Shown here: positions 1-43,985 of the stretch, in pieces
Numbering within the stretch: the stretch's first letter is position 1
Layout: the number at the start of each line of letters is the position of its first letter
The notes under the pieces: generated by a model
Seen by the model: the letters and a program-made list of their open reading frames with translations, nothing else
What the model was told of the DNA's origin: nothing
Database searches by the model: none
Program-made: the position numbers and the translations under genes
IMG/VR virus record: IMGVR_UViG_3300045988_075559
DNA: 43,985 bases
Reading direction: 5' to 3' (one strand)
DNA from: a virus

Positions 1-99
1 ATTTTTTTTGTCTCTTTCTCTGTGGCTTTTGCTTTATCTACGCTGAGTAACTTTTCAATTAAATTCCTATTCTTTCCTCCTATGCATCTATTGTGTTAA
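1..99. repeat. Terminal direct repeat, left copy (identical to 43887-43985)
   Basis: attttttttgtctctttctctgtggc...catctattgtgttaa occurs at both ends. This is most simply a circular-assembly overlap. Confidence 0.95.
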
Positions 100-514
100 G
101 TACTTCGAAGCTGCTGAAGTTAAACGGTATAGATTCCTCAAGCAGCTTACCTGCTTCCCAGTCCGCAAGTGTCAGCTCCGTGAACACGCAGTTATCTAAG
201 CGAATTCTTTCTGCTCCAAATGCTTCTGGATCTTCCAGGTTTGTGATGATCGTTGCTCTTGTTGCTTTTCCTTTTTTTAAATTCTCTGAAATCTTCTTTA
301 TGAAATAAGATGTCACTTTATTCAGCTTCAAGGTTCCAGATCCGCTAATCCCGGTTACCTTATACCCCTTTTCCAGCGTTCCGGTTCTCTTAACTTCTGT
401 CGTGTCAAGCTTCATTTTCGCCTGCAAAGCTGTCGTTTCTGCCATGTAGTCATTGTCTATCCAGCACTCTCCAAAAGTGCCGTTGACAACTCTGTCATCT
501 GTATAATTATTCCT
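80..514 (-). CDS. Tail tube protein (XkdM-like), proposed AGG start
   Basis: The ORF-track Met (445) is internal. The upstream in-frame codons NNYTDDRVVNGTFGECWIDNDY continue an XkdM-type N-terminus. There is no ATG/GTG/TTG in frame back to the sheath stop (527-529). AGG 512-514 lies 7 nt after GGAGG (522-526). Stop is TAG 80-82. Confidence 0.8.
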   Translation of the reverse strand, partial: RNNYTDDRVVNGTFGECWIDNDYMAETTALQAKMKLDTTEVKRTGTLEKGYKVTGISGSGTLKLNKVTSYFIKKISENLKKGKATRATIITNLEDPEAFGAERIRLDNCVFTELTLADWEAGKLLEESIPFNFSSFEVLNTIDA

Positions 515-526: not shown

Positions 527-1606
527 TTACACAGCAATCTCCAGATTAATGTCTTCCATTACGTCCACGATCGTCACGTATGCCTTCAGAAAAACTTTAT
601 TATCGGTATACTGCTTTTTGATTTCCTCCTCTGACATTGCTTCTGCTTCGTCTCTGGAGACCTCCTTGTTTTCGATGATATATTCTTTTATCGCTTCTGT
701 ATCCAAGCCAATTTCATAGTCCTGTATCAGCCCGTTTCTTTCCAACTCTTTCAAGTAAGAATTGATCGCTGATATCAGGAGGCATTTGTTACTGTATGTG
801 TTTGGATACTTTCCGATATAGTTATCCTCGGCCAGCAGCACCAAATCGTCGTGGATCATATCCATTGTCTCTACAACACGGATTTTTTTCCACGAATCAG
901 CTTTTCCTTTCTGAACTGTCGTCAGAGAGTTGACGCCTTTTGCTACTTTTACTTTTTCTCCATCGTAGAACACAACAAATTTTCCTGAATCCACAGCAGT
1001 ATCCAGTGCATCTTTATCCAGTTTTTCACATGCGCTTACTTCTTCCAACACGGCAAATGTAGATGATATTTTATACGATGTTCCCGCAAGAAGTCCGGCG
1101 ATCCTGGAACAGAACGCCTCTGGCGTATATTTCTTATTGTTTACAATCACTTCGCTCGTTGCATAATTTATAATGCCTTCATTGTCCGCCGTATTATCAG
1201 GCAGAATTGCCTTTACCCTGTTCCTATTGCCATCTCTCTGCTCTTTTACCCATGTCAGGACGCTTTCTTCCTGTCCATCAGTCTTTACAGTCGGACAGCA
1301 CAGCCATGTTACTTTTTTGATTTCAAAGTATTCTAAAGCCTTGCTGTAATTTTCTTCTATTTTTTCAAGGACATATACAACTACCTTTCTTGGAGTTGTG
1401 TCATTTCCTTTCAGCGCAAATTTGATCTGTTCTTTGCTTTCTTCACTAAATGCTTCCGGGATATCTTTTTCACTGTAAATAACAGTCGGGTTTGCGGTTG
1501 GTACCGTTGTTTCTTTTATGATCATTCCAACCGTTCCACGTTCAGCTCGTCTTATTGTTTTTCTCGCCGCTGCCACAAAGACAACGTTCATTGTTGGTAA
1601 GCCCCT
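527..1606 (-). CDS. Contractile tail sheath protein (XkdK-like), proposed AGG start
   Basis: Sheath-like 354-aa ORF directly upstream of the tube gene. AGG 1604-1606 is 9 nt after GGAGG (1616-1620), overlaps the upstream stop TAG (1605-1607), and adds GLPT before the ORF-track Met (1591), which has no SD. Confidence 0.8.
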   Translation of the reverse strand, partial: RGLPTMNVVFVAAARKTIRRAERGTVGMIIKETTVPTANPTVIYSEKDIPEAFSEESKEQIKFALKGNDTTPRKVVVYVLEKIEENYSKALEYFEIKKVTWLCCPTVKTDGQEESVLTWVKEQRDGNRNRVKAILPDNTADNEGIINYATSEVIVNNKKYTPEAFCSRIAGLLAGTSYKISSTFAVLEEVSACEKLDKDALDTAVDSGKFVVFYDGEKVKVAKGVNSLTTVQKGKADSWKKIRVVETMDMIHDDLVLLAEDNYIGKYPNTYSNKCLLISAINSYLKELERNGLIQDYEIGLDTEAIKEYIIENKEVSRDEAEAMSEEEIKKQYTDNKVFLKAYVTIVDVMEDINLEIAV

Positions 1607-2039
1607 AGTCTTTTACCTCCTGTCCAAGCATAAGTATTTTCATTGTTTCAACATTTTCCTGTCTTTCAATCCGGTCCCAGAACTCTATGTCGAATCTACA
1701 CATTGGTACATTTGCATTTTCTCCCTGGAAGGTTAATTCCATGTCGCTTGTGTTTAAGCTTCTGCTGCCTACTGTCAGTTTCTGCCCGAACATTTCTTCC
1801 ATTATGGCGAAAAAATCTGTTCCATCTGCCTCGTTTGCCGCTTTTTGTATGTAATAGATTTCAGCCTCTACATTCTTATGTCTGGCATTTTTTGTTGATT
1901 CTAAAAAGGTCTGTGTTATATATACAAAAAAAGAAGGTCTGGTATAGCCTTCTATTGTATCGGCGCCATAGATTTTGTATTCCGGATATCTTTCTTTTAA
2001 AGCGGAATTGACCGCTTTCTTTATTTCTTTAAGAGTCAA
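1605..2039 (-). CDS. Head-tail joining / tail completion protein (family not recognised)
   Basis: TTG start 6 nt after AGGAGG; 144 aa. It occupies the slot between the gp10-like gene and the sheath. Confidence 0.6.
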   Translation of the reverse strand: MTLKEIKKAVNSALKERYPEYKIYGADTIEGYTRPSFFVYITQTFLESTKNARHKNVEAEIYYIQKAANEADGTDFFAIMEEMFGQKLTVGSRSLNTSDMELTFQGENANVPMCRFDIEFWDRIERQENVETMKILMLGQEVKD

Positions 2040-2529
2040 TTCCAGCCTCCTTTAATATTTTGTCAAGCAGTTCCTGTCCGATCAGCTCTGCGTAATCCGC
2101 ACGCTGCGCCATATATCTTGCAACTGTCTTTCTTCCTTTTACTTCTCCGACTTTCTTTCCAGTTCCTGCTTTTCCTCTTCCTTTCTTGTCCTTCCGATTA
2201 TGTGTAACCATATCATGGCCAAGTTCGTACAAATGATAATGAGGAGCTGATGACGTTACGGCGATTGTCATTTTACTTCCGGAACGGATTACTCTTCCCT
2301 GCCGGAAGCTCTTGCTTAATGGCTTCTGTGTTTCTTCGTCACTGCTGTTCTTTCCCCGCCGATAATGATGCCCTTTTGCTTCAGAATTTACTCGTTTTTG
2401 TAAATCCTTAGCAATATTTTTCGCTTCTTTCTTTAAAACTTTTTCCGCAGATGCAGGATATTGTTTTGTCGCCTTCTCCATTGCCTGGATCAGTTCCGAA
2501 GCGTCAAAATCAAAGTTGATACTTGACAC
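2029..2529 (-). CDS. HK97 gp10-family head-tail protein
   Basis: GTG 2527-2529 is 9 nt after AGGAGG. The ...SSAPHYHLYELGH... pattern fits the family. The ORF-track extension to 2601 overlaps the upstream gene and lacks an SD. Confidence 0.6.
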   Translation of the reverse strand: MSSINFDFDASELIQAMEKATKQYPASAEKVLKKEAKNIAKDLQKRVNSEAKGHHYRRGKNSSDEETQKPLSKSFRQGRVIRSGSKMTIAVTSSAPHYHLYELGHDMVTHNRKDKKGRGKAGTGKKVGEVKGRKTVARYMAQRADYAELIGQELLDKILKEAGIDS

Positions 2530-2854
2530 TTTCGAACACCTCCTCACATTGGATTTCCAGCATTCTGTGCGCATTATCCATATCAAGCGGTGGGCCTGCA
2601 ATGGAAAACATGTGTCCCTGATACAAAATCCTCATATCTGCAGTAATATCTTTTCGGAAGCGGATGTACATCCTGTGTGTAACCTCCGGCTTTAATTTGC
2701 TCATGAAATTGTATTCTGATGCTTTGTATGGTTTTACAGTTGCCCATACTGTCCGATATTTTTTCCACTCGGATTTGTCCTGACCCATTTCATCTTCTGA
2801 AGTGTTCAGGCGGAGAAATGTGATCCGCCTGTTTAGTTTTCCGATATCAACCAT
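2510..2854 (-). CDS. Head closure / head-tail adaptor protein (SPP1 gp16-like)
   Basis: ATG 2852-2854 is 6 nt after GGAGG. The MVDIGKLNRRITF...WATVKP...THRMYIRFR pattern fits the family. Confidence 0.65.
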   Translation of the reverse strand: MVDIGKLNRRITFLRLNTSEDEMGQDKSEWKKYRTVWATVKPYKASEYNFMSKLKPEVTHRMYIRFRKDITADMRILYQGHMFSIAGPPLDMDNAHRMLEIQCEEVFESVKYQL

Positions 2855-3147: not shown

Positions 3148-4302
3148 TCATACTCCTGTAACAGTTGCATCTTTAATTGTCAGCTGCCCGTTCACGAACG
3201 CTTCTTCGTCTTTCACCGTGCAGTCTTCCCTTTCGATTGCCCTGAAGATTGTAAGATCTTCTTCAAATGCATTCAGTTCTCCGATCTGGGCGATGTTAGA
3301 TGTCATAAGAGTCATCTGGTTTCTATCCCAGAATTTGATACCCTCTTTCAAATCTCCGATAATAACTGGTATCTTTCTACTTCCTGCTGTCTTTGTATCG
3401 GATGGCATATCGGAGTTTGGAATAACTTTGACAGGAACAATTGTTGATCCAGCGCAAAGTCTAAGCTGCATTGGATTTGCAGGATCCGGCTGGAGAAGAT
3501 ATCTTCCTTCGTTATCCTTTAATGTATCAAGCCACTGTAACCCATCGTCGTTTGTCACAATTGCAGAAGTAGGTTTAAATGCCTGTCCAAGCGTGATATT
3601 CAATGCTTTCTTGATATCATCAAGATCTTTCATTGCTGTTACATCCTTTGTCGCAATCTGCTCAAGAATCATTTTATTTCTTGTGACTCTTGACTCATCC
3701 GCAATCCATGTTGTCAAAGCTCCCGTAATATTTGCATCTGTATCCGCAAGAAGTTCATTTGTGCAAGGAAAATATCCTGCATATTTTTCAATCTCGTATG
3801 AGATTCTTTCGAACTGCGGGGTTGTTCCAGCTGTTATCTTTCCACCTTCTCCCACTTTCGCAAACCCAGTCTGCTGCGCACGTTTCTTATAGGTTCTCTG
3901 GCCTTTGTTTGTTGTTACATTTTCTACATCAACCAGGCTGATCAGAGAGAATTTTGCGCCTCTGTATGTATTGATCTGTGTCTGGATGTCTTCCGGGACT
4001 GTATATCCTCCATCTGCAGGTGTGCCTTCTACCATAGTTGCGTTTCGGAATCCTCTTCTTGCAGCATTAGCAAATTCTTTGATAGAGTTATTTTCTAACG
4101 GTTTCGGTTCCTGTGATGGATTGGCTGTTCCATCTCCGTCTGGATCCATGATGTCTTTCAGAAGGTCAAACTGTTCCTGCATATCTTTAAGTTCTTCCTT
4201 GGCTGTTCTTGCTTCTTCCAGCTTTCCCTGCTCTACCAGGGACTGTACCATTGTTTTTTTCTCATTAATAGAGTTTAAAAGTTCTAATAATTTTTTATTC
4301 CT
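3148..4302 (-). CDS. Major capsid protein (HK97 fold type), proposed AGG start
   Basis: Capsid-like 367-aa ORF downstream of the protease. AGG 4300-4302 is 5 nt after GGAGG (4308-4312) and adds NKKLLELLNSINEKKT, a coiled-coil N-terminus. No ATG/GTG/TTG lies in frame before 4251, and that ATG lacks an SD. Confidence 0.85.
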   Translation of the reverse strand, partial: RNKKLLELLNSINEKKTMVQSLVEQGKLEEARTAKEELKDMQEQFDLLKDIMDPDGDGTANPSQEPKPLENNSIKEFANAARRGFRNATMVEGTPADGGYTVPEDIQTQINTYRGAKFSLISLVDVENVTTNKGQRTYKKRAQQTGFAKVGEGGKITAGTTPQFERISYEIEKYAGYFPCTNELLADTDANITGALTTWIADESRVTRNKMILEQIATKDVTAMKDLDDIKKALNITLGQAFKPTSAIVTNDDGLQWLDTLKDNEGRYLLQPDPANPMQLRLCAGSTIVPVKVIPNSDMPSDTKTAGSRKIPVIIGDLKEGIKFWDRNQMTLMTSNIAQIGELNAFEEDLTIFRAIEREDCTVKDEEAFVNGQLTIKDATVTGV

Positions 4303-4319: not shown

Positions 4320-4982
4320 TCAGATACCATACTGATCTAAGTCTCTTAATATTTCTTTTTTCTGCTGTTCTTTTGCTTCCTGGGCTTCTTTTTCCTGTTT
4401 TACTTTATTGCGTATTTCATCCGTCAGTCTGACTCCGCACACGCAATTAAAGAACTGCTGCCCTGAATTCTCGATCTTATCAATAAATCCAAGTTCAAGA
4501 GCCTTCTCTGCTGTGATCCATGTTTCCTTATCCATCATTTTCAGGATTTCATCTTTTGATCTTCCTGTTTTTTTTGCATACGCTTCCGAAAGCGCACTGT
4601 TCATTGTTTTCAGGATTTCTGCGTTCTTCTGCATATCATGATAATCTCCGGAAGCTCCTGACATTGAGACATTGTGGATCATTATAGTCGCAACAGGGCT
4701 CATTTTGCATGTGTTTGCCATTGCAATCACACTGGCTGCACTACCAGCAAGCGATTGAATGTTGATTTCCACGTCACTTCTTCCGGCAAGAATAGAATAG
4801 ATTTCCTGTCCTGCCATCACAGAGCCGCCGCCTGAGTTTATGTTTACCGTGAGTGTTTCTCCTGGTTGAAGAGAGGCAATTGCATTCCTGATATCATTCG
4901 GACATGTGGAATCCCAGTCCAGCCAGTCGTAAATCCATTTATCATCATTGCTGATGATATCCCCTCTTACATCAATCTCCAT
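4320..4982 (-). CDS. ClpP-family (S14) prohead maturation protease
   Basis: ATG 4980-4982 is 8 nt after GGAGG. Motifs: ...NINSGGGSVMAG...LAGSAASVIA...IMIHN. Confidence 0.85.
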   Translation of the reverse strand: MEIDVRGDIISNDDKWIYDWLDWDSTCPNDIRNAIASLQPGETLTVNINSGGGSVMAGQEIYSILAGRSDVEINIQSLAGSAASVIAMANTCKMSPVATIMIHNVSMSGASGDYHDMQKNAEILKTMNSALSEAYAKKTGRSKDEILKMMDKETWITAEKALELGFIDKIENSGQQFFNCVCGVRLTDEIRNKVKQEKEAQEAKEQQKKEILRDLDQYGI

Positions 4983-6252
4983 CTCCTTCACCTCCCTGTG
5001 TGTTAACTCCGTAAGCCGCGCCTATATGTGTTATTGGCTGATACGTTCCGTTTACCATGTTGACATCTCCTCCGTCCACGAAAGGAAGATCAAGGAGATC
5101 TCTCCCCTCATTGATCGTATAGATTCCGTTCTGCACGTATCCAGTTATTACTTCCTTCTGTGTCTTTGAATCCGTTCTCAATAATGCTTTTTCGTTGAAT
5201 TTAAAATAATATCCTTCTTTTTTCTCAGTATCAGAAAGACATTTATAGTTTATCTCCTGCTCGTACTGTGACAATCTATAGCTCATCGTGTCCACCAGGA
5301 ATGCCAACTGCTGGCTTTCAGAATTTGAATAGCTTGACTTATCATAATCGTTTAGCTGATTTGGTTTAATTCCGAATGCTGCTGCAATCTGCAATGCCGT
5401 ATATTTTTTTATCTCTGCATACTGCGCATCTGCCAGAGTTACGTTTAGTGGCTGCAGTGTCATACCAACTGGTACCGCCACCACTTTACCTGCGTTTTTA
5501 GCGCCTGAAAGTAATGCGTTGTATTCCTTTTGCAAGGCCATACGCTTTGGTTTATCAAGGTCTCCTGTATACTGCAACGCTGCCTTTGCGGTTAATCCGC
5601 TAGCATACAGCTGATTCAAGTATTTCTGTGACTCCACTGCGCCCGAAATTGAATCCTGTAAGATCTGCCTTACCGGTTTTCCCATGATTCCATTAAGTGT
5701 GCACCATGTTTTAAAGTGCATAACATTATCCTGTGAAAAAGTGTATGTCTTTCCGGTCTTAGGATCGCTGTATCGATAATACAGCCTTCCTGCGTCTCCG
5801 AACACTCCCACATCATCCATTAGCACATCCACATAATTGCTCTGCATAGGCCAGAATGAAAGAATGTTGTATTCTCCTCCATATCTTCCCTTTTTCTCGA
5901 ATTTCGTCTGTATCCATACATACGCATTTCCATAATGTTCACAATTATATTCTATCGTGCCCCAGAACGTCGCCGGAGTCATGATCTGATTTGGTCTGTT
6001 CATAAGGAGCCATGAAGCTCTCGTCGGATCTGCCCGTATTTTTCCCTTATCGGTCTGCTTATAAAATTTCAGTGGCATTTTCCCCATTGTTTCTGAAAGC
6101 ATTTTTAAGCATGTAAAATACGTTACTTCTCCAATTGCATTTCGTGGGGTTTTTGGATCAATTCCAAGCCACTCCATTAGCCTTTCATCATCTATTGATG
6201 TAGGCTCTCCAACAAGGGAATTCCACATTTCTTTAATTTTCTGTAGAATCCT
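4972..6252 (-). CDS. Portal protein (HK97 family), proposed AGG start
   Basis: Portal-like 418-aa ORF after TerL. AGG 6250-6252 is 7 nt after GAGGAG (6260-6265) and adds ILQKIKE. The ORF-track ATG 6226-6228 has no SD. Confidence 0.8.
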   Translation of the reverse strand, partial: RILQKIKEMWNSLVGEPTSIDDERLMEWLGIDPKTPRNAIGEVTYFTCLKMLSETMGKMPLKFYKQTDKGKIRADPTRASWLLMNRPNQIMTPATFWGTIEYNCEHYGNAYVWIQTKFEKKGRYGGEYNILSFWPMQSNYVDVLMDDVGVFGDAGRLYYRYSDPKTGKTYTFSQDNVMHFKTWCTLNGIMGKPVRQILQDSISGAVESQKYLNQLYASGLTAKAALQYTGDLDKPKRMALQKEYNALLSGAKNAGKVVAVPVGMTLQPLNVTLADAQYAEIKKYTALQIAAAFGIKPNQLNDYDKSSYSNSESQQLAFLVDTMSYRLSQYEQEINYKCLSDTEKKEGYYFKFNEKALLRTDSKTQKEVITGYVQNGIYTINEGRDLLDLPFVDGGDVNMVNGTYQPITHIGAAYGVNTQGGEGDGD

Positions 6253-7996
6253 TCAATATCTCCTCAATAAAATTATCAATGTAATCTCCGTAATCGTCTC
6301 CGAATGCATGAAACATTGCCAGCTTATACGCACATAGTGTTGCATCCACCGGGTCGATTCTCTTTGTTGTTGCATCTTTATCAATTTTGATCAATCCATT
6401 GTTCTGCCGGATTACCGCATTACTCATCGCATAATTCAGCAGAGGATTGTAAGTATATATAATATTTCTGCAAAATACCTGCTCTCTGAATCCCTGTGTT
6501 GCTTCGTTTAAATGTTTGTGGCTCTGAAATACTTCTTCGACATCGTATCCTTCATCTGACAGATCCATCATTAATTTACTTGCATTTGCAGGGTCAAAGC
6601 ACAGGCATTGTATTTTTAATTTCATTTTTTCGCAGGTCTCAAGAACATATCTCATAACTGCTCCCTGATCTACGATCGGAGTGTTTGTTACCTCCAGAAA
6701 TCCCATACGTTCCCACGCGTCATAGGCAACCTTGTCTTTTATAATATGTTCCTGAAGCTTCTCCCTTGTCGGGATAAAACTGTGTGACCAAAGAATATAC
6801 TTTACTATTTCTTTTCTATTCGCATCATATTCCCCGGATAAAAATGGAATCATAAACGCCACTGATGTAAGATCTGTCTTTGCGGACATATCGAAACCTA
6901 CATACACCGGATGTCCCGTTATATCAAATGGTAATTCATTCACCTGGCAGGCTTTCCATTTCGACATGTCCATATACCCATTCTCTTTCGCCTGCACCCA
7001 GACATCCAGACATTTTGTGAGGAAGGCCGTCATATGTTCTGGCTGTTCTCTGGCAATCTTATATTCACCGCGAATCTTATCGACACCTTCCGGATATGTC
7101 ATTCTAATCGGATTAGCTTTCTTCCAAGTCTCTTCGTTATCCAGATTTGAAATGTCTTCATAATCTTCCGGGTCCATCTCACAAATGTCGATTAGATATT
7201 CATCATTCTCCACGTCCGTGTTTGGATCCAACACCTTGGAACAATACTGATACTCAGTCACATAACAAGGATAAGTTAAATCCATTCCAGCTGTTGTTAT
7301 GATCATCAAGAGCGGCTCTTTTGTGTTTGATCCTATTCCTAAATCATAGAACTCCGTGGTTTTGTGCTGATGATACTCATCCAAAACCAGAAGTGCAGGG
7401 TTTGTACCATCCCCGGACTTTCCATCGTCTTTTGATAATGGTTTGATTGTGCTATTGCTTTTCAGATGTTTTATACAGTCCCTGGTTACCTTAAATTTCA
7501 TCCTCAAAGGTGATCCTTGAAGCATTAATCCGGCTTCCCCGAATACAATCTTGGACTGATCGCGTTTTGTGCCGGCGGTATAAATCTCGTATACTTCTCC
7601 GTTCTTGGTTGATGTAACTGCTGCCTCATAGAGTGCAATACCTGCCTCTTCCTGAGATTTCGCATTCTTTCTAGCCACTTCTGTGAAATATTTCTTAAAA
7701 CGTCGATATCCGGTATCTTTATGCACCCATCCGTACAGCTGGCAGATTCTAAATCTCTGCCATGGTGTTAGAATGATCGGTTGCTTTGCCAGAACTCCTT
7801 TACTATGTCGTAAGAGCGCAAACCATTCTACAATGTTCTCTGCCTGTCTTTCATTCCACACATACGGGAAATCCAATTGACCGATTCGGTCAATATCTTT
7901 CAACAATCTTTTGCAGGCCCATATGTGTTTCCTGCCGCTGATAATCTTTCCAGAGATACAATCTAATGCGTATTGTTTTAATTCATCAAGGATCAT
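6233..7996 (-). CDS. terL: Terminase large subunit
   Basis: 587 aa with ATPase and nuclease halves. The ATG overlaps the TerS stop (ATGA coupling). Confidence 0.9.
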   Translation of the reverse strand: MILDELKQYALDCISGKIISGRKHIWACKRLLKDIDRIGQLDFPYVWNERQAENIVEWFALLRHSKGVLAKQPIILTPWQRFRICQLYGWVHKDTGYRRFKKYFTEVARKNAKSQEEAGIALYEAAVTSTKNGEVYEIYTAGTKRDQSKIVFGEAGLMLQGSPLRMKFKVTRDCIKHLKSNSTIKPLSKDDGKSGDGTNPALLVLDEYHQHKTTEFYDLGIGSNTKEPLLMIITTAGMDLTYPCYVTEYQYCSKVLDPNTDVENDEYLIDICEMDPEDYEDISNLDNEETWKKANPIRMTYPEGVDKIRGEYKIAREQPEHMTAFLTKCLDVWVQAKENGYMDMSKWKACQVNELPFDITGHPVYVGFDMSAKTDLTSVAFMIPFLSGEYDANRKEIVKYILWSHSFIPTREKLQEHIIKDKVAYDAWERMGFLEVTNTPIVDQGAVMRYVLETCEKMKLKIQCLCFDPANASKLMMDLSDEGYDVEEVFQSHKHLNEATQGFREQVFCRNIIYTYNPLLNYAMSNAVIRQNNGLIKIDKDATTKRIDPVDATLCAYKLAMFHAFGDDYGDYIDNFIEEILKDSTEN

Positions 7997-8502
7997 ATTG
8001 CACCAAACCGGTTTTCAATTTCTTTCTGCTGCTTATTCACTTTTGCCGTGCCGGCTTTCAGTCTCGAATCAATTGTCAATCCACACAAGGCAGCAAAGCG
8101 TCGCATTTCTTCCGCATATCCTTTCTGAATGTCTACCATCGGATTCTTTACGACAATTACTCCGGTTCTGGTTTCTCTGTCAACATAATATGTCTGCTGA
8201 CTTAATATTTCTGTGGCTTTTACATAGTTTGCGAACGCATTACAATAGCCTCCGATATTATTCCTGTCCAGGTTTCCGACTATATTTAGTTTATCCAACT
8301 CTTTTATGATCCTGCGCCATTCTTTTTTTGCCACATCATCTATCAGCCATGTCGGAGGACGTTTGAGCTGGTTTTTCTCTGTTCTTACCTGGTCTTCTGC
8401 GTCTGCTTTCTTTTGTCCTTCTACTATTGTCAGGTGCTTTTTCTGCAAGCTGACTGGTTTCATTGGTCTTGCCCTTGTCCTCCCTCCTCTCTGGCCTGCC
8501 AA
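7993..8502 (-). CDS. terS: Terminase small subunit (P27 family)
   Basis: TTG 8500-8502 gives MAGQRGGRTRARP, the usual family N-terminus. ATG 8542-8544 is an alternative. Neither has a clear SD. Confidence 0.65.
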   Translation of the reverse strand: MAGQRGGRTRARPMKPVSLQKKHLTIVEGQKKADAEDQVRTEKNQLKRPPTWLIDDVAKKEWRRIIKELDKLNIVGNLDRNNIGGYCNAFANYVKATEILSQQTYYVDRETRTGVIVVKNPMVDIQKGYAEEMRRFAALCGLTIDSRLKAGTAKVNKQQKEIENRFGAI

Positions 8503-8578: not shown

Positions 8579-8980
8579 CTATCCCCCGGTGGTCTTGAAA
8601 CGCATCTGAAAGTCTCTCAATTCCTCCTGCACTACCGTCTTTCCCTCTTTCTCATATCGTTTATGTATCTCTTTATGTCCAGCTCTTGAGACTGGAATCA
8701 AATTTGAATCTGAATAGAACAAATCAGGTCTGTCTTGTGATAGCTCAATATGATGTGCCGTATCTGCTGTTACTATTCTGTTGTACTTGTACAATATATA
8801 GATATCCAGTCCATCATAACTGTTAAGTACAAACTGTCTCAGATTCTTCCATCGTTGTGTGTGATATTCTTTCTTTATTCCGGTCGGCTTCGCGTACTCT
8901 CTGATGTTGTTCTTTCTGCACGGGCAGGTAGTTCCTGCCGGTACCCTACCCCCACATCTACCACATCGTTTGTATATCAT
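8579..8980 (-). CDS. HNH endonuclease (packaging-associated)
   Basis: ATG 8978-8980 is 5 nt after GGAGGG. Zinc-knuckle Cys pairs plus HHIELSQ...NLIPVSRAGHKEIH. The ORF-track extension to 9028 would overlap a tRNA. Confidence 0.8.
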   Translation of the reverse strand: MIYKRCGRCGGRVPAGTTCPCRKNNIREYAKPTGIKKEYHTQRWKNLRQFVLNSYDGLDIYILYKYNRIVTADTAHHIELSQDRPDLFYSDSNLIPVSRAGHKEIHKRYEKEGKTVVQEELRDFQMRFKTTGG

Positions 8981-9001: not shown

Positions 9002-9072
9002 TAGCGGGAGACGGATTCGAACCGCCATTCCAGGCTAAGGAGGCCTGTAAGTTTCCGTTACTTTATCCCGCG
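9002..9072 (-). tRNA. Initiator-like tRNA with anticodon CCU (decodes AGG)
   Basis: 71-nt cloverleaf with acceptor CGCGGGA/UCCCGCU and C1 opposite U72. D stem AAGU/ACUU (A11:U24); anticodon arm CAGGC-CUCCUUA-GCCUG; T arm GGCGG-UUCGAAU-CCGUC; A73. No encoded CCA. Confidence 0.75.
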
Positions 9073-9079: not shown

Positions 9080-9153
9080 TGGACATTCTGAGATTTGAAC
9101 TCAGGACCGTCCGGTTATGAGCCGGATGCTCTGACCAGCTGAGCTAAATGTCC
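9080..9153 (-). tRNA. tRNA with anticodon CAU, elongator type (Met or Ile2)
   Basis: 74-nt canonical cloverleaf: GGACAUU/AAUGUCC (G1:C72 paired), D arm GCUC-AGCUGGUCA-GAGC, anticodon arm UCCGG-CUCAUAA-CCGGA, T arm CUGAG-UUCAAAU-CUCAG. Confidence 0.85.
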
Positions 9154-9160
9154 GTAGCGT

Positions 9161-9195
9161 AGGAGCCACCTGCTCATAAAGAACAGATGGCTCCT
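9161..9195. other. Long hairpin (15-bp stem, 5-nt loop) between the tRNA-like element and the tRNAs
   Basis: aggagccacctgctc / ataaa / gaacagatggctcct, with 13 Watson-Crick pairs and 2 wobble or mismatch positions. No flanking U tract. Confidence 0.6.
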
Positions 9196-9426: not shown

Positions 9427-9849
9427 TTAATTTTCTTTAAAAAATCTTTGAAATTCTTTTTTTACGCTCTCTTCTGTGGCTTTTCTTCCCATCTTTCCAG
9501 CTACCTGCTGCCACGTCAGTTCTTCAAACACCTTGTATTTTATGATTCTCTGCATTCTTGGAGGAATTGTGTTTAGCCACCCTTCTACTTTTGTCTTTAG
9601 CTGCTCTGCCTGTTTTCTTCTCTCTTCCAGTACCTTCTGTCGATAGCGCAGTTGGCTGTCGTCCTTAATAGAAAATGTTGTTCCCTGCACCTTGAAATGT
9701 TTTGGGTTATAAGGAAATTCGGGGTTGCTTCCAGACACGTTTGTCTGTATCACTGTCTTTTTCTTTCTGTTAAGCTTTTTAATCTCCTGTTCCGTTTCCC
9801 TGATCAGTTCGCAGGCATCTACGTATTGATTCAAAATATTCTTATCCAT
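9427..9849 (-). CDS. Putative late-gene transcriptional activator (sigma region-4 / ArpU-RinA-like HTH)
   Basis: ATG is 8 nt after GGGGAG. The C-terminal ...LTWQQVAGKMGRKATEESVKKEF resembles a sigma-r4-type HTH. It sits just upstream of the packaging genes. Confidence 0.4.
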   Translation of the reverse strand: MDKNILNQYVDACELIRETEQEIKKLNRKKKTVIQTNVSGSNPEFPYNPKHFKVQGTTFSIKDDSQLRYRQKVLEERRKQAEQLKTKVEGWLNTIPPRMQRIIKYKVFEELTWQQVAGKMGRKATEESVKKEFQRFFKEN

Positions 9850-29166: not shown

Positions 29167-29180
29167 TATTTGATTGCTGA

Positions 29181-31737: not shown

Positions 31738-32478
31738 TTAAAATTTTAATCTGTATTTCAATCGGCTTCTTTTTCTGCTAAAACGCACCTTATCTACGGT
31801 TGGATCAGAATACATTTTGAGTCTGCCCTTTACAACCTTAAAGGCGGCAAAATGGACGTTTCCGGTTTCGCCTTTAAGTTCAGTTTCTTTCTGGTGGACA
31901 TAATTATCAATGTCTTTCTTTCCCTCTTCTACTCTGCCGGGAATAGATGCTGCAACTTTCTGTGCTTCTCCGGCATAGTATTTCGCATTGTCTTCTTTTT
32001 GCTCCGGATAATCTCCTCTTCCGTGTGCCCAGGCCTCTGCCTGGTCTCTGGCTTTTTCTGACCGGTCGGCTGCCTGATTGACTGCCTCGACCGTCTCTCT
32101 GAAAATCTCCGGTTCTTCCGGCGATCCGGGAACCTCCGGTTTTGGTCTTGCTTTTATTGGTATGGTTATTTTATGTTCTGTATTTCCAGAATTATTTTCA
32201 CTCAGGTATATGAATGCGTATATTTTGTAATTTTGGTCGATTTCTTCGTTCTCCAGCATGGAATCCGGAATTGGCACATCTGTTACAGAATCTTTCGTTG
32301 TTCCTATTCTTGTTACAGATGTTCCGCCTGTTTCTTCCAATGAGAAATGTATCTCAATAGCCGGCCGTAGAGTAAGTCCCTGAATTCTTAAAATTTGTCC
32401 ATAATCCCACTGCCACGCTGTTTCGGCCCGAATATTTGTTTCTGCTTCTGAAAAAACAGCAGTGATTATATTATTCCT
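31738..32478 (-). CDS. Fibre-module virion protein (family not recognised), proposed AGG start
   Basis: The frame is open for 46 codons upstream of the ORF-track TTG (32340, no SD). AGG 32476-32478 is 6 nt after GGAGG (32485-32489) and overlaps the rSAM 3' end. Confidence 0.6.
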   Translation of the reverse strand, partial: RNNIITAVFSEAETNIRAETAWQWDYGQILRIQGLTLRPAIEIHFSLEETGGTSVTRIGTTKDSVTDVPIPDSMLENEEIDQNYKIYAFIYLSENNSGNTEHKITIPIKARPKPEVPGSPEEPEIFRETVEAVNQAADRSEKARDQAEAWAHGRGDYPEQKEDNAKYYAGEAQKVAASIPGRVEEGKKDIDNYVHQKETELKGETGNVHFAAFKVVKGRLKMYSDPTVDKVRFSRKRSRLKYRLKF

Positions 32479-34482: not shown

Positions 34483-35142
34483 TCATTTTACCGCAGATGA
34501 AACCTGCCCATAGCATGTATCTTTGCATGTATTTCCGCAATTAGTAGAACAATTTGACGAGCATGAAGTACTGCATCCTCCGCAAATCGTAGAACAGCTA
34601 TTTGAACACGATTCCGCGCATCCTCCCATGCATGAAGATGTACATTCGGATCCGCATGAACTTCCGCATGAGCTGCATCCAGAACAGCCAGTGCATGATG
34701 TCGAACACGATGCTGTGCATCTATTGTCGCATCCAGTACAGTATCCTGAACATGTCCCAGAGCATCCAGAGCAATCGTATGAACAACTGTACCCGCATCC
34801 AGTACATCCATTTTTGCAGCCGCCCGAACAGTCATCTGCGCATGTTGCAAAGCAATTGCCTCCGCATGCATTTGTGCAGTCTGCGCAAGTCTGCGCACAA
34901 TTTGTCGTGCAGGTCTGGAAGCAATCCGTTTTGCAGCCACCCGAACAGTCATCTGCACATGTTGCCTGACAACCCGTACATTCATCCTCACATGCTCTGT
35001 TGCATAGCCTATCACAATTCCCACTGCATCCAGTTTTACAGCTGGTTGAGCATGCGGTTCCGCATGAGCTTCCGCAATTTCCTTTCGTCGTATTTTGACA
35101 ACTTGTCGCGCACTGAGTTCCGCAACTAGATGTACAAGCCCT
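34483..35142 (-). CDS. CXXX-repeat Cys-rich protein (219 codons, 54 Cys), proposed AGG start
   Basis: Absent from the ORF track. This 660-nt open frame, (AGG)ACTSSCGTQCATSCQN...CKDTCYGQVSSAVK, has no N-terminal ATG/GTG/TTG. AGG 35140-35142 is 8 nt after AGGAGG (35151-35156). Stop is TGA 34483-34485. Confidence 0.7.
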   Translation of the reverse strand, partial: RACTSSCGTQCATSCQNTTKGNCGSSCGTACSTSCKTGCSGNCDRLCNRACEDECTGCQATCADDCSGGCKTDCFQTCTTNCAQTCADCTNACGGNCFATCADDCSGGCKNGCTGCGYSCSYDCSGCSGTCSGYCTGCDNRCTASCSTSCTGCSGCSSCGSSCGSECTSSCMGGCAESCSNSCSTICGGCSTSCSSNCSTNCGNTCKDTCYGQVSSAVK

Positions 35143-35163: not shown

Positions 35164-35691
35164 TTAAGCTTTTATTGATGTAGTGCATCCCGCGCCGCAT
35201 GTATGTGTGCAGCCGCTCGAACAGCCGCCTGTGCAGCCGCCACAGCCGCCTGAACAGCCATCTGAGCACTGTTTTCCACATGTAGTGCTACAGTTTCCAG
35301 AGCACGAAGCGCACCCCATACAGGCAGATGCACAGGCCAGTTCGCATAGACCTGTGCAATTCCCCCTACACCCCGATACCTTTGCATCTTTCTGTATGTT
35401 CAGCATTTTGTCTGCGAAATTTTCCGCTCTTTCCAAAGTCATTTCAAGAGCAGTTCTTTCTTTTCTCAGACTGTTATCTTGCAGGAAATCATTGATTTCC
35501 AGAAGTGGATCAATAATCTTTTGAATGTGCTCATCTGAAACCTGTTTTCCATTCTGCGGCATGAAATCAAAATCATATTCCTGCGATGCATATTTCTTCA
35601 GTGAACCTCCCATTTGTTCTGCTGTTCTGCTCATCATTGTTTTTTTTACTTTTTCTTTGATCCGTTTCAAAGATTCAGCTGTTATAATCCT
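35164..35691 (-). CDS. Protein with helical N-domain and C-terminal CXXX-repeat tail (17 Cys), proposed AGG start
   Basis: AGG 35689-35691 is 7 nt after AGGAG (35699-35703). The ORF-track TTG 35670 lacks an SD. C-terminus: CRGNCTGLCELACASACMGCASCSGNCSTTCGKQCSDGCSGGCGGCTGGCSSGCTHTCGAGC. Confidence 0.7.
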   Translation of the reverse strand, partial: RIITAESLKRIKEKVKKTMMSRTAEQMGGSLKKYASQEYDFDFMPQNGKQVSDEHIQKIIDPLLEINDFLQDNSLRKERTALEMTLERAENFADKMLNIQKDAKVSGCRGNCTGLCELACASACMGCASCSGNCSTTCGKQCSDGCSGGCGGCTGGCSSGCTHTCGAGCTTSIKA

Positions 35692-36268: not shown

Positions 36269-36803
36269 ATGTTACCTCCTCATTCCGCAGCTGGTAATAT
36301 GTCTTTTCTTTTAGCTGCTTATATGTATAAGGTTTATATTTTTTGTATTGATTGTATCTAAGAGTTATTTCTAGTAGATAATCGAGCGGAACCATCTGTT
36401 CAAACAGATCTTCTACTCCCTTGATCATATACTTACGCGTCACTTCAACCTGACATGATACCTGTTTTTTATCCAGTTCAATGTCCAGTATATAGTTTTC
36501 TCTTCCAAGCACTGCGTCCAGTTTCTGGCGTAGTGTTGTTTCTGTGTATACAGGACTGGACCACCACCTCAGCAGCACTTCCACTTTTCGGTCTTCCAGG
36601 CTAGCGGTATCTAACGGCTGAATTCCGAGGATCTTTTCTCTGCGCTGTATTCCTGATTCTTCAGCTGTTTTGATCGTAATATTACGGTCAATTTCTTCCA
36701 GATAATTTTCAAGAACCCTTCCAACGTTGTCTCCTGCATCAACGCACGCTTTTATCTCTCTTATATCTATTACAACATCCGGGTACTCCACATTTATATG
36801 CAT
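36252..36803 (-). CDS. XkdU-like (DUF2313-type) baseplate/tail protein
   Basis: ATG overlaps the upstream stop. It occupies the position after the baseplate J gene. Confidence 0.55.
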   Translation of the reverse strand: MHINVEYPDVVIDIREIKACVDAGDNVGRVLENYLEEIDRNITIKTAEESGIQRREKILGIQPLDTASLEDRKVEVLLRWWSSPVYTETTLRQKLDAVLGRENYILDIELDKKQVSCQVEVTRKYMIKGVEDLFEQMVPLDYLLEITLRYNQYKKYKPYTYKQLKEKTYYQLRNEEVTFAKNN

Positions 36804-37864
36804 GTGATATCCCCCTTTACCGGCACGGTTCCATCTGTTATCTGTAGATTCTCCGCTTTCCCATTAATTTTAGTGTCTGCCACATCAATGATTCCTTTGA
36901 TATTTACAACTGCTGCCTCAATTTGTAGTATTCTCACAATGATTGTTTCTTTATTTTCCCATTCTTTTCTCAGATTTAGTAAATATTCATCGATAGTCTG
37001 GTTAATATAGCTTTTCAGGGCTTCCGCAGTATATCCGGATTCGCATGTGATTGTTGTCTCTATATTTACGGTAGTTTCTTCTACGCCAGTGATCGTCACC
37101 CTATGCCCGATGGGTGCAAATCCCTCACCTTCTCCGCTGTTTACAATCGGATCAACAGCCGTCTGAGTTGCAGTTATAACATCCTGTGACGGTTTTCTGT
37201 AATCCTGCCCTATGATAGTTATGGCAATTCTGTCCGATGGTGCCTTTACACGTTTCAGCTTGCATCCATATACACCGCTTAATTCTTTTATACGGCTTTT
37301 GTAATATTCCCTATTTCCCGCAAACCCTCTGTAATTATATGTCGCAAGTAATCTCGCGCGATAGCTCTCCGTCTCTTCCTGATCTTTTCCTTCTAATGTA
37401 CACTTAATAATTCTTCCCCATTCAAAATTATCTACGTATCCGATCGGGTCGAGGTCTCCCATTATGTGATTCGGTTCTGCACCCGGGCTATCACAGCCAA
37501 GTCGGTATGTGTGTTCTTTTTCATCAATCACATTGTATACTGTGTAATTGTATTCGTCGAGATTCCAGCGCGATCCAAGTGGTACTTCACAGTTAAATTG
37601 AGCAGTCATTTCTGCATATGTTGCCTGGTTGATATAACATCCTCTGTCGTTTCCATTCCTGATCAAGTGTTCCAGGTCCGCTGTGTCTGCATACATATTC
37701 TGTTCTATTCCAGCAAGCATCAGATAAGCTTCCTCAAGTCTTACCGCCTGTTTTGCGCATGCGTTAAAAATCAAGCTGCCTTCTGATGTATCAATGTCGT
37801 CTGGCATGTCCCTCATCATTGATCGCATGATTGCTTCGTATGTCATTTCTTCAAACCTCTGCAT
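36794..37864 (-). CDS. Baseplate J-like protein (XkdT-like)
   Basis: ...MTYEAIMRSMMRDMPDDIDTSEGSLIFNA... is a J-family N-terminus. The start is ambiguous between ATG 37864, in-frame AGG 37856-58 and ATG 37846. Confidence 0.75.
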   Translation of the reverse strand: MQRFEEMTYEAIMRSMMRDMPDDIDTSEGSLIFNACAKQAVRLEEAYLMLAGIEQNMYADTADLEHLIRNGNDRGCYINQATYAEMTAQFNCEVPLGSRWNLDEYNYTVYNVIDEKEHTYRLGCDSPGAEPNHIMGDLDPIGYVDNFEWGRIIKCTLEGKDQEETESYRARLLATYNYRGFAGNREYYKSRIKELSGVYGCKLKRVKAPSDRIAITIIGQDYRKPSQDVITATQTAVDPIVNSGEGEGFAPIGHRVTITGVEETTVNIETTITCESGYTAEALKSYINQTIDEYLLNLRKEWENKETIIVRILQIEAAVVNIKGIIDVADTKINGKAENLQITDGTVPVKGDITCI

Positions 37865-38258
37865 TCACCTCCCCGTCTCCAAGCTCTGTTATCAATCGAA
37901 ATGAAACCGTTACTTTTCCTTCATCTTTTGTACACGTAAAATTTTCAATTCCCGTTATGTACGGATTTTCTGTCAGGCACTCCTCTGTCATCCGTTCCAG
38001 TTCGGAATCTGTCAGTTCTTTTGAGTAGCTTTTTCCGATAAGTTCTTCATATTCCTGTCCATAGTCCTCTGAATAAATATAGTATCTATATCTTGGCGTT
38101 TTTAATGCCAGCCATACCCACACAAGAAGTGCATCGTATCCTTCCACTATCTTTCCGGAAAGCTGGCCGGTTTCAAAATTGATTCCATATTCCCGTGGAA
38201 TATATAAATTTTCTTCTTTCTCATCATCTTCTTCGTTGTCCACGAACGGAAACATCAT
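37851..38258 (-). CDS. XkdS-like (DUF2634-type) baseplate protein
   Basis: ATGA-coupled start. Segment ...WLALKTPRYRYYIYSEDYGQEYEELIG.... Confidence 0.55.
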   Translation of the reverse strand: MMFPFVDNEEDDEKEENLYIPREYGINFETGQLSGKIVEGYDALLVWVWLALKTPRYRYYIYSEDYGQEYEELIGKSYSKELTDSELERMTEECLTENPYITGIENFTCTKDEGKVTVSFRLITELGDGEVNAEV

Positions 38259-38578
38259 TCTGGCACCACCACCTTTGCTATCACCACATATTTTTCATGT
38301 TTATTAAGTTTTATAAGAAGGACTCTGTCTCCTTCCTGTAGAATATTTTTCTTGTATTCTTCCAGTGTTGCATTATGTGAAGAATCCGTCATATATTCTG
38401 CTGATTGTGGCTTCGAATTATGTATGAATATTTTTTTCTTATTGTCCAATCTTAGATTACAATTTATTAGATAATCATTTTTGTCCAGCGTCATGGTATC
38501 TATTTTAATCTTTCCCGCATCCATCATAATTCCCAGTTGAGGCGGCTGAGCATTGTAATATCGCCCAGCTCTTCTCAT
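38255..38578 (-). CDS. XkdR-like (DUF2577-type) baseplate protein
   Basis: C-terminal ...EGDRVLLIKLNKHEKYVVIAKVV pattern. The start is uncertain. Confidence 0.5.
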   Translation of the reverse strand: MRRAGRYYNAQPPQLGIMMDAGKIKIDTMTLDKNDYLINCNLRLDNKKKIFIHNSKPQSAEYMTDSSHNATLEEYKKNILQEGDRVLLIKLNKHEKYVVIAKVVVPE

Positions 38579-38604
38579 TTGCTCTACGTAACGTTCGTAT
38601 ATGT

Positions 38605-43396: not shown

Positions 43397-43562
43397 TGTT
43401 TTTCATCTCCTCTTTTAAGTCTTGCATTTCCTGTTTCAAAAAAGCGCGGGTGATTAATCGTTCACCCGCGCCCATATTGTAATATTTCGATGGCTTCCAT
43501 TTTTTCAGGCGGAACAATGCGTAAGCAACGCTTGCTTCGCTGTCCACCTTTATAAGTTTTTT
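43386..43562 (-). CDS. -1 frameshift extension of the tail assembly chaperone
   Basis: After the A-AAA-AAC slip the -1 frame stays open for 56 codons (LIKVDSEASVAYALFRLKKWKPSKYYNMG...KNKGR), ending at TAA 43386-88. Confidence 0.7.
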   Translation of the reverse strand, partial: KKLIKVDSEASVAYALFRLKKWKPSKYYNMGAGERLITRAFLKQEMQDLKEEMKNKGR

Positions 43563-43954
43563 ACTTCTTCTTCAGCGTCTTCTCCAAGTCCTGAGAGCTT
43601 TACGATTTCTGATGCAATGCTTCCAGTTTCCATTCCGAACAGAATCGCCGCAAGATCCTTTGGCGTAGAAGCCCCAAAATGTTCCATCAATTTCTGATCA
43701 GTCAGACATGGATCCACGACACCGTATACACAGCACATTAAATTAAAATCATATGTGGCATTCATGTCACGGTTTCCCTTTTTGTCATACAGCATGGCCT
43801 GAAGGGTGTTGTATCTTTTTCCTGATAATTCTCTAATCGTAATCTCTGCGTCTTCGCCTACCAGTTTGGCCAGCTTCTTTGATTTAATTTTTTTTGTCTC
43901 TTTCTCTGTGGCTTTTGCTTTATCTACGCTGAGTAACTTTTCAATTAAATTCCT
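43550..43954 (-). CDS. Tail assembly chaperone (XkdN-like), proposed AGG start
   Basis: Open frame of 52 codons upstream of the ORF-track ATG (43795) with no ATG/GTG/TTG. AGG 43952-43954 (= 66-68 in the left repeat copy) is 7 nt after GGAGG (43962-43966). Confidence 0.7.
   Translation of the reverse strand, partial: RNLIEKLLSVDKAKATEKETKKIKSKKLAKLVGEDAEITIRELSGKRYNTLQAMLYDKKGNRDMNATYDFNLMCCVYGVVDPCLTDQKLMEHFGASTPKDLAAILFGMETGSIASEIVKLSGLGEDAEEEVKNL
43556..43562 (-). promoter_or_regulatory. Slippery heptamer A AAA AAC
   Basis: It is in the zero frame (GT)A AAA AAC, two codons before the chaperone stop. Confidence 0.7.
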
Positions 43955-43985
43955 ATTCTTTCCTCCTATGCATCTATTGTGTTAA
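43887..43985. repeat. Terminal direct repeat, right copy (identical to 1-99)
   Basis: Exact 99-bp match to the window start. Genes read through the junction: tube stop, chaperone SD and chaperone start. Confidence 0.95.

Follow-up and report, generated by a model that had tools for sequence, protein, structure and literature searches.

The window examined here is the whole 43,985-nucleotide (nt) stretch of viral DNA recorded in IMG/VR as IMGVR_UViG_3300045988_075559. At positions 9002–9072 of its minus strand lies a 71-nt transfer RNA (tRNA) gene whose anticodon is CCU (plus-strand AGG, 9038–9040), and in 13 late genes of the same window an AGG codon stands where the start codon would be expected. 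From sequence comparisons, we consider it very probable that the product of this gene is an initiator tRNA carried by the phage, with CCU in place of the original anticodon CAU, and that this tRNA drives the AGG starts of the 13 morphogenesis genes. The window is a complete, circularly assembled genome of ~43.9 kb and 41.7% GC, with an exact 99-bp terminal overlap (1–99 equal to 43887–43985), and it belongs to a temperate, contractile-tailed phage. Its late genes are encoded on the minus strand from ~9.1 kb down to position 80, and, beyond the junction, between 43.95 and 24.7 kb; the plus strand at 21–24.6 kb encodes a serine recombinase and regulators, and the early genes occupy the minus strand between 20.9 and 9.4 kb.

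The tRNA(CCU) and its family

ARAGORN reported a tRNA-Arg(cct) at 9002–9072(−), and the Rfam model RF00005 scored it at 48.8 bits (gathering score, 29), flagging 1:72 as the sole non-standard pair. The minimum free energy (MFE) fold was the exact cloverleaf, with nucleotides 1 and 72 open. The acceptor arm has the 5′ end CGCGGG, the pairs G2:C71, C3:G70, G4:C69 and G5:C68, an unpaired C1xU72 and A73. The D arm carries A11:U24 (purine 11, pyrimidine 24) and a compact 7-nt loop, the anticodon stem contains G29:C41, G30:C40 and C31:G39 next to the loop CUCCUUA, position 37 is a U, position 20 is an A, and the variable loop has 4 nt; the CCA end is not encoded. The identical sequence was present in 24 loci fetched from viral contigs. 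An earlier note on this stretch had described the same cloverleaf, the missing 1:72 pair (C facing U) and the main acceptor, D-stem and anticodon-stem elements given above, and had entered as caveats U72, C31:G39, U37 and the arginyl-tRNA synthetase (ArgRS) identity elements A20, C35 and U36. Each of these features was found in the sequence, and the corrected fold that the note had allowed for, in which 1:72 would be restored, is not the one obtained. The ARAGORN search that it had proposed did return a tRNA(CCU) at this place, typed as Arg.

In E. coli, according to the identity rules worked out in the RajBhandary laboratory, formylation and the exclusion of EF-Tu are specified by an open 1:72 combined with G2:C71 and C3:G70. 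The window tRNA shares with the formylmethionine initiator tRNA of bacteria (tRNA-fMet; E. coli metZWV/metY) the unpaired 1:72, the pairs G2:C71 to G5:C68, A73, A11:U24, G29:C41 and G30:C40, all features defined by the RajBhandary and Varshney laboratories, and its 5′ CGCGGG is identical to that of E. coli. It differs from tRNA-fMet in having CCU instead of CAU, U72 instead of A72, C31:G39 instead of G31:C39 and U37 instead of A37, as well as in the compact 7-nt D loop, the 4-nt variable loop and its location in the late operon of a phage; a blastn search of the window tRNA against E. coli genomes gave no match. The anticodon stem reads GC/GC/cg, so that the three consecutive G:C pairs (29:41, 30:40, 31:39) are not complete and G30:C40 is kept. 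This pair is the essential one among the three of the E. coli initiator; natural au/GC/gu initiators occur, and an engineered cg/GC/cg stem sustains E. coli growth (PMC5389676). Since the anticodon is CCU and not CAU, the molecule would be no substrate of methionyl-tRNA synthetase, would not read AUG and is not a tRNA-fMet in the strict sense. The elongator tRNA-Arg(CCU) of the E. coli argW type, and a genuine elongator found in locus L240, share with the window tRNA the anticodon CCU, C35, U36 and A20, the complete ArgRS identity set being present in the window copy. However, elongators have a Watson–Crick 1:72 pair (needed for EF-Tu binding), a pyrimidine 11:purine 24 pair and a purine as nucleotide 37, none of which is present in the window tRNA. 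Taken from its sequence, the window tRNA appears to be an initiator-type body with altered decoding specificity.

Relatives of this tRNA were collected with a strict pattern (CGCGGG...CCU...T-loop...CCCGC) and with a looser one in which N1, N72 and N73 were free. The strict pattern was found in 56 viral contigs, where nucleotide 72 was always U or A and never G. The looser pattern yielded many more distinct sequences from viral contigs and from bacterial genomes and metagenome-assembled genomes (MAGs), with CxA, AxA, GxA, CxU or UxU at 1:72, and with A73. At least 15 distinct CCU tRNAs of this kind were obtained, their sources being phages or prophages of Blautia, Roseburia, Agathobacter and Treponema. 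Seventeen distinct 71-nt members were aligned gap-free. In this alignment, 20 of the 21 cloverleaf pairs were kept, 14 of them with compensatory changes on both sides, while 1:72 was unpaired in 17 of 17 members even though both columns vary. A73 was near-invariant, G30:C40 was present in 16/17 members and G29:C41 in 12/17, and 31:39 was mostly U:G. The initiator-type assignment at 9002–9072 is thus supported by this family covariation in addition to ARAGORN, Rfam and the MFE fold. The pattern also picked up the L240 elongator, in which G1 pairs with C72 (G1:C72) and the D arm is normal.

The tRNA of a second lineage (lineage B; loci L089 and L093) reads AGCGGAG-UA-GAGC-AGUCUGGUA-GCUC-...-CUCCUUA-...-CUCCGCA-A and is located in the same genomic slot; the capsid gene that follows ~4.7 kb downstream has a product 69% identical to that of the window. 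When all 5,426 E. coli genomes were searched with this tRNA, the best match over its full length was tRNA-fMet (75.7% identity), found at a median of 4 places per genome and verified at the metZWV locus.

Initiator-type bodies with CCU were also seen in MAGs of the candidate phyla radiation and of Actinomycetota, where they are known from the tRNA alone. Outside Firmicutes, L178 (a Parcubacteria MAG) and L228 (an Actinomycetota MAG) carry near-complete tRNA-fMet bodies with a GAGA or GAGC D arm and a GGG/CCC anticodon stem, and L179 (a Bacteroidales MAG) carries an fMet-like body in which the three G:C pairs are present and the anticodon loop, CUCCUUAA, has 8 nt; ARAGORN labelled it 'tRNA-??? 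(cctt)'. Other anticodons on initiator bodies were rare (UAU in 3 loci, CUG in 8 loci), and these loci are short for judging CAG or AUA starts. The tRNAs with UAU, which reads AUA, were found in viral contigs L305, L312 and L314. L305 and L314 have clearly fMet-like bodies with the D arm GAGCAGTTCGGCAGCTC, C1xU72 and A73, and L312 has C1xC72 and another D arm; they are possibly initiators for AUA starts. The bodies with the Gln-type anticodon CUG (CGCGGGG...CCCCGCA-A, with C1xA72 and A73) came from viral contigs L348–L350, L352–L355, L345 and L346, and one CAG positioned after a Shine–Dalgarno (SD) sequence was seen in L355 (acggaggtgttatt CAG).

AGG codons at the start of late genes

The late genes were inspected over the in-frame stretch from the upstream stop codon to the first ATG, GTG or TTG. 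In thirteen of them, a strong SD sequence and a spacer of 5–10 nt precede an in-frame AGG, behind which the codons of a typical N-terminus follow. From the AGG to the first canonical start downstream there are 4–171 codons, and none exists upstream in frame; the PHROG profiles align from residues 1–5 of the AGG-initiated proteins. The earlier note had listed nine virion genes with AGG starts; the starts themselves were found, and the number rises to 13. In orthologues of the capsid, neck, sheath, tube, chaperone, baseplate and tail-fibre-region (g32478) genes, an ATG occupies the identical site.

The substitution pattern at these positions differs from that of internal AGG codons. Across unique contexts, the start position was AGG in 62, ATG in 42 and AGA or CGN in 0; within these 13 genes, AGG codons at internal positions aligned to AGG in 68 cases and to other Arg codons in 92 (Fisher p = 1.2e-18 against the starts, in a count that includes related sequences). 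The start AGG therefore becomes ATG and never AGA or CGN, whereas internal AGG drifts, which argues that the start codon does not behave as an arginine codon. AGG starts were found in 13 of ~35 late genes and in 0 of ~25 early or lysogeny genes (p = 3e-4). Per 1000 codons, the late genes contain 5.8 internal AGG and the early genes 8.0; in both groups this represents 14% of the Arg codons, and AGA dominates. As internal AGG is rare and not enriched in late genes, there is no codon-supply rationale for a CCU elongator. On this evidence from codon contexts and alignments, AGG occupies true start positions.

The base preceding the start (−1) was A in 63–80% of the unique AGG-start sites, compared with 36–39% before ATG in the same phages (loci L001–L148), and G was enriched at +4 of the AGG starts. 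A pairing of U37 with the −1 base (quadruplet pairing) was considered as an account of the unusual U37. However, the enrichment of A at −1 was the same with U37 and A37 tRNAs; there is thus no covariation, and quadruplet pairing was rejected.

All 13 genes are encoded on the minus strand. The small terminase gene terS (7993..8475; phrog_83 from residue 1) has its AGG at 8473–8475 after GGAGGGAGG. This AGG is kept in all relatives, including the lineage-B phage L093 at 48% identity; the ATG that the window has four codons downstream is missing from most of them, so that it does not offer an alternative start. The AGG of the portal gene (4972..6252; phrog_12), at 6250–6252 and 8 nt after GAGGAG, is kept in relatives of 86–100% identity, and relatives of 80% identity have an ATG one codon upstream. 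The gene of the HK97-type major head protein (3148..4302; phrog_10 from residue 3) starts at 4300–4302 after GGAGGAT and ATA, in the context ACGGAGGATATA-AGG-AAT-AAA-AAA-TTA-TTA. Its first ATG is 17 codons downstream, and an ATG stands at the exact AGG site (MNKKLLELLN) in relatives of 79–80% identity and in every relative devoid of the tRNA. The tail completion or Neck1-like gene (2029..2619, AGG 2617–2619; phrog_5) has ATG at the AGG position in L017, L025, L041 and L042.

In the tail sheath gene (527..1606; phrog_1480), the AGG at 1604–1606 follows AGGAGG by 9 nt and overlaps the upstream stop codon as TAGG; residues 2–358 of the product align to positions 2–352 of the 353 of the profile, and the AGG is kept down to 69% identity, with ATG in L088, which does not carry the tRNA. 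The tail tube gene (80..514; phrog_365) has its AGG at 512–514, 6 nt after AAGGAGGA, and its first ATG 23 codons downstream; residues 3–143 align to positions 4–144 of 146, the AGG is kept while the second codon varies, and L088 again has ATG. The gene of an XkdN-like tail assembly chaperone (43550..43954; phrog_389 from residue 2) starts at 43952–43954, an AGG that is repeated at 66–68 through the 99-bp overlap. Here the first ATG lies 53 codons downstream, and relatives of 98–99% identity have ATG at the exact AGG site (MNLIEKLL). The AGG of the tape measure gene (41231..43396, AGG 43394–43396; phrog_1272) is kept down to 67–72% identity, and that of a tail-module gene (38255..38614, AGG 38612–38614, 8 nt after GGAGGA; phrog_579) down to 50%, with a second codon that varies between tct, cct and gct.

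The baseplate wedge subunit gene (36794..37858; phrog_6) has a probable AGG start at 37856–37858. An ATG lies two codons upstream (37862–37864), only 3 nt after the SD sequence; L282, which is 98% identical, has GCG instead of this ATG and keeps the AGG, and L291 has ATG at the AGG site. For a tail-module gene of unassigned family (35164..35691, AGG 35689–35691, 6 nt after AGGAGA), the AGG is kept in all relatives found (93–100% identical) and no ATG orthologue was seen among them, which is weaker evidence than that for the other genes. The phrog_6085 gene (34483..35142) starts with the AGG at 35140–35142 after AAGGAGGA, which is kept while the spacer varies; the first canonical start in its frame is 171 codons downstream, and of the overlapping frames at 34.5–35.1 kb only the AGG-initiated one has a PHROG match, the rival frame having none. 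Finally, the tail-fibre-region gene g32478 (31738..32478, AGG 32476–32478; phrog_16164), whose residue 5 aligns to position 2 of the profile, has its first canonical start 46 codons downstream, and its AGG is replaced by ATG in L279 and L285.

Co-occurrence of the tRNA with AGG starts, and the genomic setting

Relatives of the window were fetched through the capsid protein, which makes the sample independent of the tRNA, and comprised 24 loci with the tRNA and 18 without it. We counted, in an orthology-free manner, the codons located 5–10 nt after an SD sequence upstream of the first canonical start of long open reading frames. In the 24 loci with the tRNA, AGG was the commonest codon (167 of 872 events, 3–10 per locus), well above what chance would produce. 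The 18 loci without it gave 4 AGG among 326 events, all of them trivial: the AGG events of L091, L108 and L112 were discarded as SD sequences of a canonical start 3–7 codons downstream, or as weak. No other non-canonical codon was enriched at these sites. Every capsid-anchored locus with the tRNA(CCU) had AGG starts, and those without it, where the upstream region was covered, had ATG at the capsid gene. In L088, which contains the HNH–terS region and no tRNA, the capsid, sheath, tube and chaperone genes all start with ATG.

Because the capsid-anchored loci are related to one another, unrelated lineages were also examined. AGG starts with textbook SD sequences were found beside other CCU tRNAs in phages of 26–45% GC representing about ten unrelated lineages (loci L141, L130, L126, L143, L128, L133, L145, L129, L127, L134, L136, L144 and L120), as well as in prophage or MAG loci (L195, L198, L232, L248, L259 and L153) of Lachnospiraceae, Blautia, Agathobacter, Roseburia lenta and a Treponema. 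The unrelated lineages gave 35 AGG events in 209 kb, compared with 1 in 135 kb of unrelated low-GC viral loci. The control loci that had shown AGG events (7, then 3) were found to carry a CCU tRNA and were reassigned (L232, L248, L253, L257, L259 and L153), after which the genome controls gave 0 AGG events. The co-occurrence of the tRNA with AGG starts across many phage lineages is strict. The earlier note had suggested looking for it in related phages; it holds in the clade of the window and in the unrelated lineages alike. As judged from these genomes, the AGG-start system is widespread in phages of gut Lachnospiraceae and at least sporadic in Spirochaetes.

The set of AGG genes varies among close relatives. 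The chaperone gene has AGG in the window and ATG in phages that are 98–99% identical, and the clade at 80% identity has ATG at the capsid gene, yet AGG in the neck, sheath, tube and tape measure genes. These exchanges suggest that the two codons are interchangeable when the tRNA is present.

A second tRNA gene, with anticodon CAU (9080..9153, minus strand; G1:C72; ARAGORN tRNA-Met(cat); Rfam, 73.1 bits), lies upstream of the tRNA(CCU), from which it is separated by 7 nt. By its sequence it would be an elongator-type tRNA-Met or possibly a lysidine-modified tRNA-Ile2, and one blastn match, in an Acinetobacter phage, carries the annotation tRNA-Ile. It adjoins the tRNA(CCU) in nearly all lineage-A loci and not in the lineage-B loci L089 and L093. 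The pair is located directly downstream of a gene for a transcriptional regulator of the RinA/Alt-like activator family (9427..9849, minus strand; phrog_36 and phrog_2198), which matched by blastn the RinA-family activator of Ruminococcus phage phiRgPS_6 and which, going by context only, is likely the late-gene activator. On the other side, 21 nt separate the 3′ end of the tRNA(CCU) from the ATG start of an HNH endonuclease gene (8579..8980, minus strand; phrog_144). This gap leaves no space for a terminator and a promoter, which suggests that the tRNA lies in the 5′ leader of the late operon. No terminator was predicted on the minus strand around the tRNAs, and sigma-70 promoter or terminator signals in this region did not exceed the shuffled expectation.

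An inverted repeat (GGAGCCAtctgttctttatgagcagGTGGCTCC, ~9160–9195, minus strand) was observed just upstream of the tRNA(CAU). A third, degenerate tRNA further upstream (~9240–9290, minus strand), proposed from the T-arm-like GCAGGTTCGAATCCTG, was dismissed, as Rfam did not support it even at permissive thresholds. No close relatives of the window were found in a curated phage collection, where the matches were limited to the neighbouring tRNA-Met and the RinA-like gene. The window also contains a diversity-generating retroelement, with a reverse transcriptase gene (27262–28383, minus strand; Pfam RVT_1), beside it a 137-nt template repeat (28537–28673), and a variable repeat (29178–29314) that is 88% identical to the template and lies at the 3′ end of a 398-amino-acid gene (29181–30377, minus strand); the first 13 mismatches between the two repeats are all A-to-N changes at template adenines.

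Alternative explanations, proposed mechanism and implications

A systematic ATG-to-AGG sequencing or assembly error, or a chance cloverleaf, is already refuted: the tRNA and these AGG sites were encountered again in dozens of independent data sets (metagenome assemblies, MAGs and isolate genomes, with Blautia aquisgranensis, Roseburia lenta and a protein record of Blautia wexlerae among them), and most ATG starts of the same genomes are intact. A more substantial alternative is that the tRNA is an elongator tRNA-Arg(CCU) serving a codon that is rare in the host, with C1xU72 as a tolerated defect and the AGG 'starts' as internal Arg codons or untranslated leaders. The Arg label given by ARAGORN and the ArgRS identity elements A20, C35 and U36 agree with it, and phage tRNAs are usually explained by codon supplementation (background in PMC10264068). 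It is nonetheless barely credible, since 1:72 is unpaired in all 17 family members while the other pairs covary, and the genuine elongator of L240 has G1:C72 and a normal D arm. Moreover, AGA dominates over internal AGG (14% of the Arg codons, without late enrichment), the 13 sites change to ATG and never to AGA or CGN, and the profiles align from residues 1–5 with no canonical start upstream in frame.

We also regard it as very unlikely that the AGG codons are real starts read by the fMet-tRNA(CAU) of the host, through near-cognate pairing or termination–reinitiation, with the tRNA(CCU) as a coincidental passenger. The native initiator is weakly promiscuous on many codons, AGG among them (preprint 10.64898/2026.04.16.719103), and several AGG starts abut or overlap an upstream stop codon, as in the TAGG of the sheath gene. 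However, AGG differs from AUG at the middle position, and initiation of this kind is very weak; genomes with AGG starts always carry a CCU tRNA, in more than 10 independent lineages; and relatives that do not have this tRNA carry ATG at the AGG sites, with no other non-canonical codon enriched. Two further alternatives concern why the system exists. It could be an anti-defence device, in which an initiator that escapes nucleases or toxins directed at tRNA-fMet (VapC-type) allows virion proteins to be made still, timing being secondary. The loop CUCCUUA and the stem do differ from those of tRNA-fMet, the evasion of anticodon nucleases by loop changes in phage tRNAs has been proposed (PMC10264068), and the AGG set comprises the most essential structural genes. 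Against this, the essential late genes terL, protease and endolysin keep ATG or TTG and would still be blocked, and Pfam revealed no defence or counter-defence gene linked to the tRNA. This idea, which competes only as to purpose and shares the initiator mechanism, we judge unlikely. A serious alternative is a neutral ratchet that, once the tRNA exists, would explain the many AGG genes: ATG-to-AGG is a single T-to-G change of little cost, and its fixation in essential genes makes the tRNA indispensable. The rapid toggling between AGG and ATG among close relatives fits this ratchet.

We thus favour an orthogonal phage initiator behind the AGG-initiated late genes, as the earlier note had proposed; the open 1:72 in 17/17 members, the ATG orthologues and the co-occurrence with AGG starts all point to it. 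Several observations nevertheless weigh against this reading. In the window tRNA itself, nucleotide 72 is U and not A, the third anticodon-stem pair is C:G and not G:C, and U37 is unusual. In the family, A11:U24 is present in only 6/17 members, the rest having U11:A24, and A30:U40, a pair that does not function in initiators of E. coli, occurs in one member (the L001/Blautia aquisgranensis type). The search patterns fixed G2–G5 and C68–C71, and the family was thereby ascertained on an fMet-type, initiator-like acceptor, so that the conservation of these pairs is not independent evidence; the statistics, in turn, count related sequences. The bodies with the CUG anticodon show the same kind of mismatch (C1xA72) with no evident CAG starts in the short loci available. 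The 1:72 mismatch alone is therefore not diagnostic; in the case of CCU, it is the co-occurrence with AGG starts that provides the link to function. A20, the main determinant of E. coli ArgRS, is found in only 5/17 members, for which reason Arg is not assured as the loaded amino acid. No promoter was predicted upstream of the tRNAs. Finally, the tRNA lies in the same operon as the genes that it would gate, which weakens a simple temporal-switch rationale.

In the mechanism that we propose for this phage initiator, the tRNA(CCU) would be cut from the 5′ leader of the late transcript, probably together with the tRNA(CAU). Pfam detected no synthetase, formyltransferase, deformylase or tRNA-modifying enzyme among the window proteins, so host enzymes must act on the tRNA. 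A host synthetase would charge it, most likely ArgRS through C35 and U36, with A20 in addition in the window copy. The unpaired 1:72 together with G2:C71, C3:G70 and G4:C69 would probably make it a substrate of the host formyltransferase and keep it off EF-Tu. IF2 would then deliver it to the P site of the 30S subunit, where CCU would pair perfectly with an AGG located 5–10 nt after the SD sequence, a duplex that should satisfy IF3. Expression, aminoacylation, formylation and P-site delivery are steps that we infer. With AGG at the start of 13 morphogenesis genes, their translation would be conditional on the phage's own tRNA. The purpose that we prefer, with low confidence, is a private initiation channel controlled by the phage, which could confine virion-protein synthesis to the late phase, suppress leakiness in the lysogen and tie the structural module to the tRNA.

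That initiation by a CCU–AGG pair is feasible follows from engineered systems. In six E. coli strains, metY(CCU) combined with an sfGFP reporter starting at AGG outperformed the 11 other non-canonical pairs tested (35–402-fold) and exceeded AUG in Nissle, and metY(CCU) does not have A20 (preprint 10.64898/2026.04.16.719103). Engineered orthogonal initiators, such as the amber i-tRNA(CUA), i-tRNA(AAC) and metY(CCU)/AGG, follow the same logic, namely an initiator body with a new anticodon and a matching non-AUG start after an SD sequence. They are man-made, plasmid-borne and serve one reporter, whereas the system of the window is natural, occurs in many lineages and involves about a dozen essential genes; moreover, its tRNA body has diverged from tRNA-fMet. 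A search of open-access papers and bioRxiv found engineered systems only and no natural counterpart, and within this literature a natural initiator(CCU)/AGG-start system has not been previously described. The suppressor tRNAs of recoded phages offer a parallel, in that a phage tRNA gives a new meaning to a codon enriched in late or structural genes, for whose proper expression the host machinery alone is insufficient. Such tRNAs have reportedly been described in stop-codon-recoded phages (crAss-like, Lak) by Ivanova in 2014 and by Borges and Peters in 2022. They act at elongation or termination by converting UAG or UGA to sense, whereas the window tRNA would act at initiation: its anticodon reads a sense codon, the special positions are starts instead of in-frame stops, and the meaning of internal AGG (Arg) is untouched.

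Reannotation is a practical consequence. The versions of these proteins deposited in public databases, on hundreds of contigs, are truncated at the N-terminus: the capsid protein has 367 amino acids (DAE69912.1) vs. 384, the tail tube protein 111, 121 or 135 (the last by PGAP, Blautia wexlerae WP_432705447.1) vs. 144, and the chaperone 81 on 181 contigs vs. 134 in the relatives with ATG. In public protein databases, gene callers disagree on P0001, P0016, P0020, P0022, P0031 and P0033. If the AGG starts are used as proposed, the N-termini of structural proteins would be mis-annotated in hundreds of deposited gut phage and prophage sequences.

To our knowledge, all known translation in bacteria, bacterial and viral, starts with fMet-tRNA(CAU) on AUG, GUG or UUG. 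We think it likely that many temperate phages infecting gut Firmicutes use AGG as a genuine start codon by means of a natural orthogonal initiator tRNA, and that their core virion proteins begin with (formyl-)Arg or another non-Met residue; AGG looks like a natural second start codon owned by the virus. If this is true, a dedicated tRNA would for the first time be seen to have enlarged the set of start codons in nature, and the rule of initiation by fMet-tRNA(CAU) would be broken: the start codon, like stop codons, could be re-coded by a virus, probably with a different amino acid too. The initiation channel would be owned by the phage and independent of host tRNA-fMet, adding a new layer of virus-controlled expression and genetic isolation between phage modules. 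Synthetic biology would gain a naturally optimised orthogonal initiation pair, AGG/CCU being also the best engineered one. The system raises the questions of late timing, the silencing of prophage leakiness, the evasion of defences directed at tRNA-fMet and the lock between module and tRNA, and its hosts (Blautia wexlerae, B. aquisgranensis and Roseburia lenta) are abundant, culturable commensals of the human gut.

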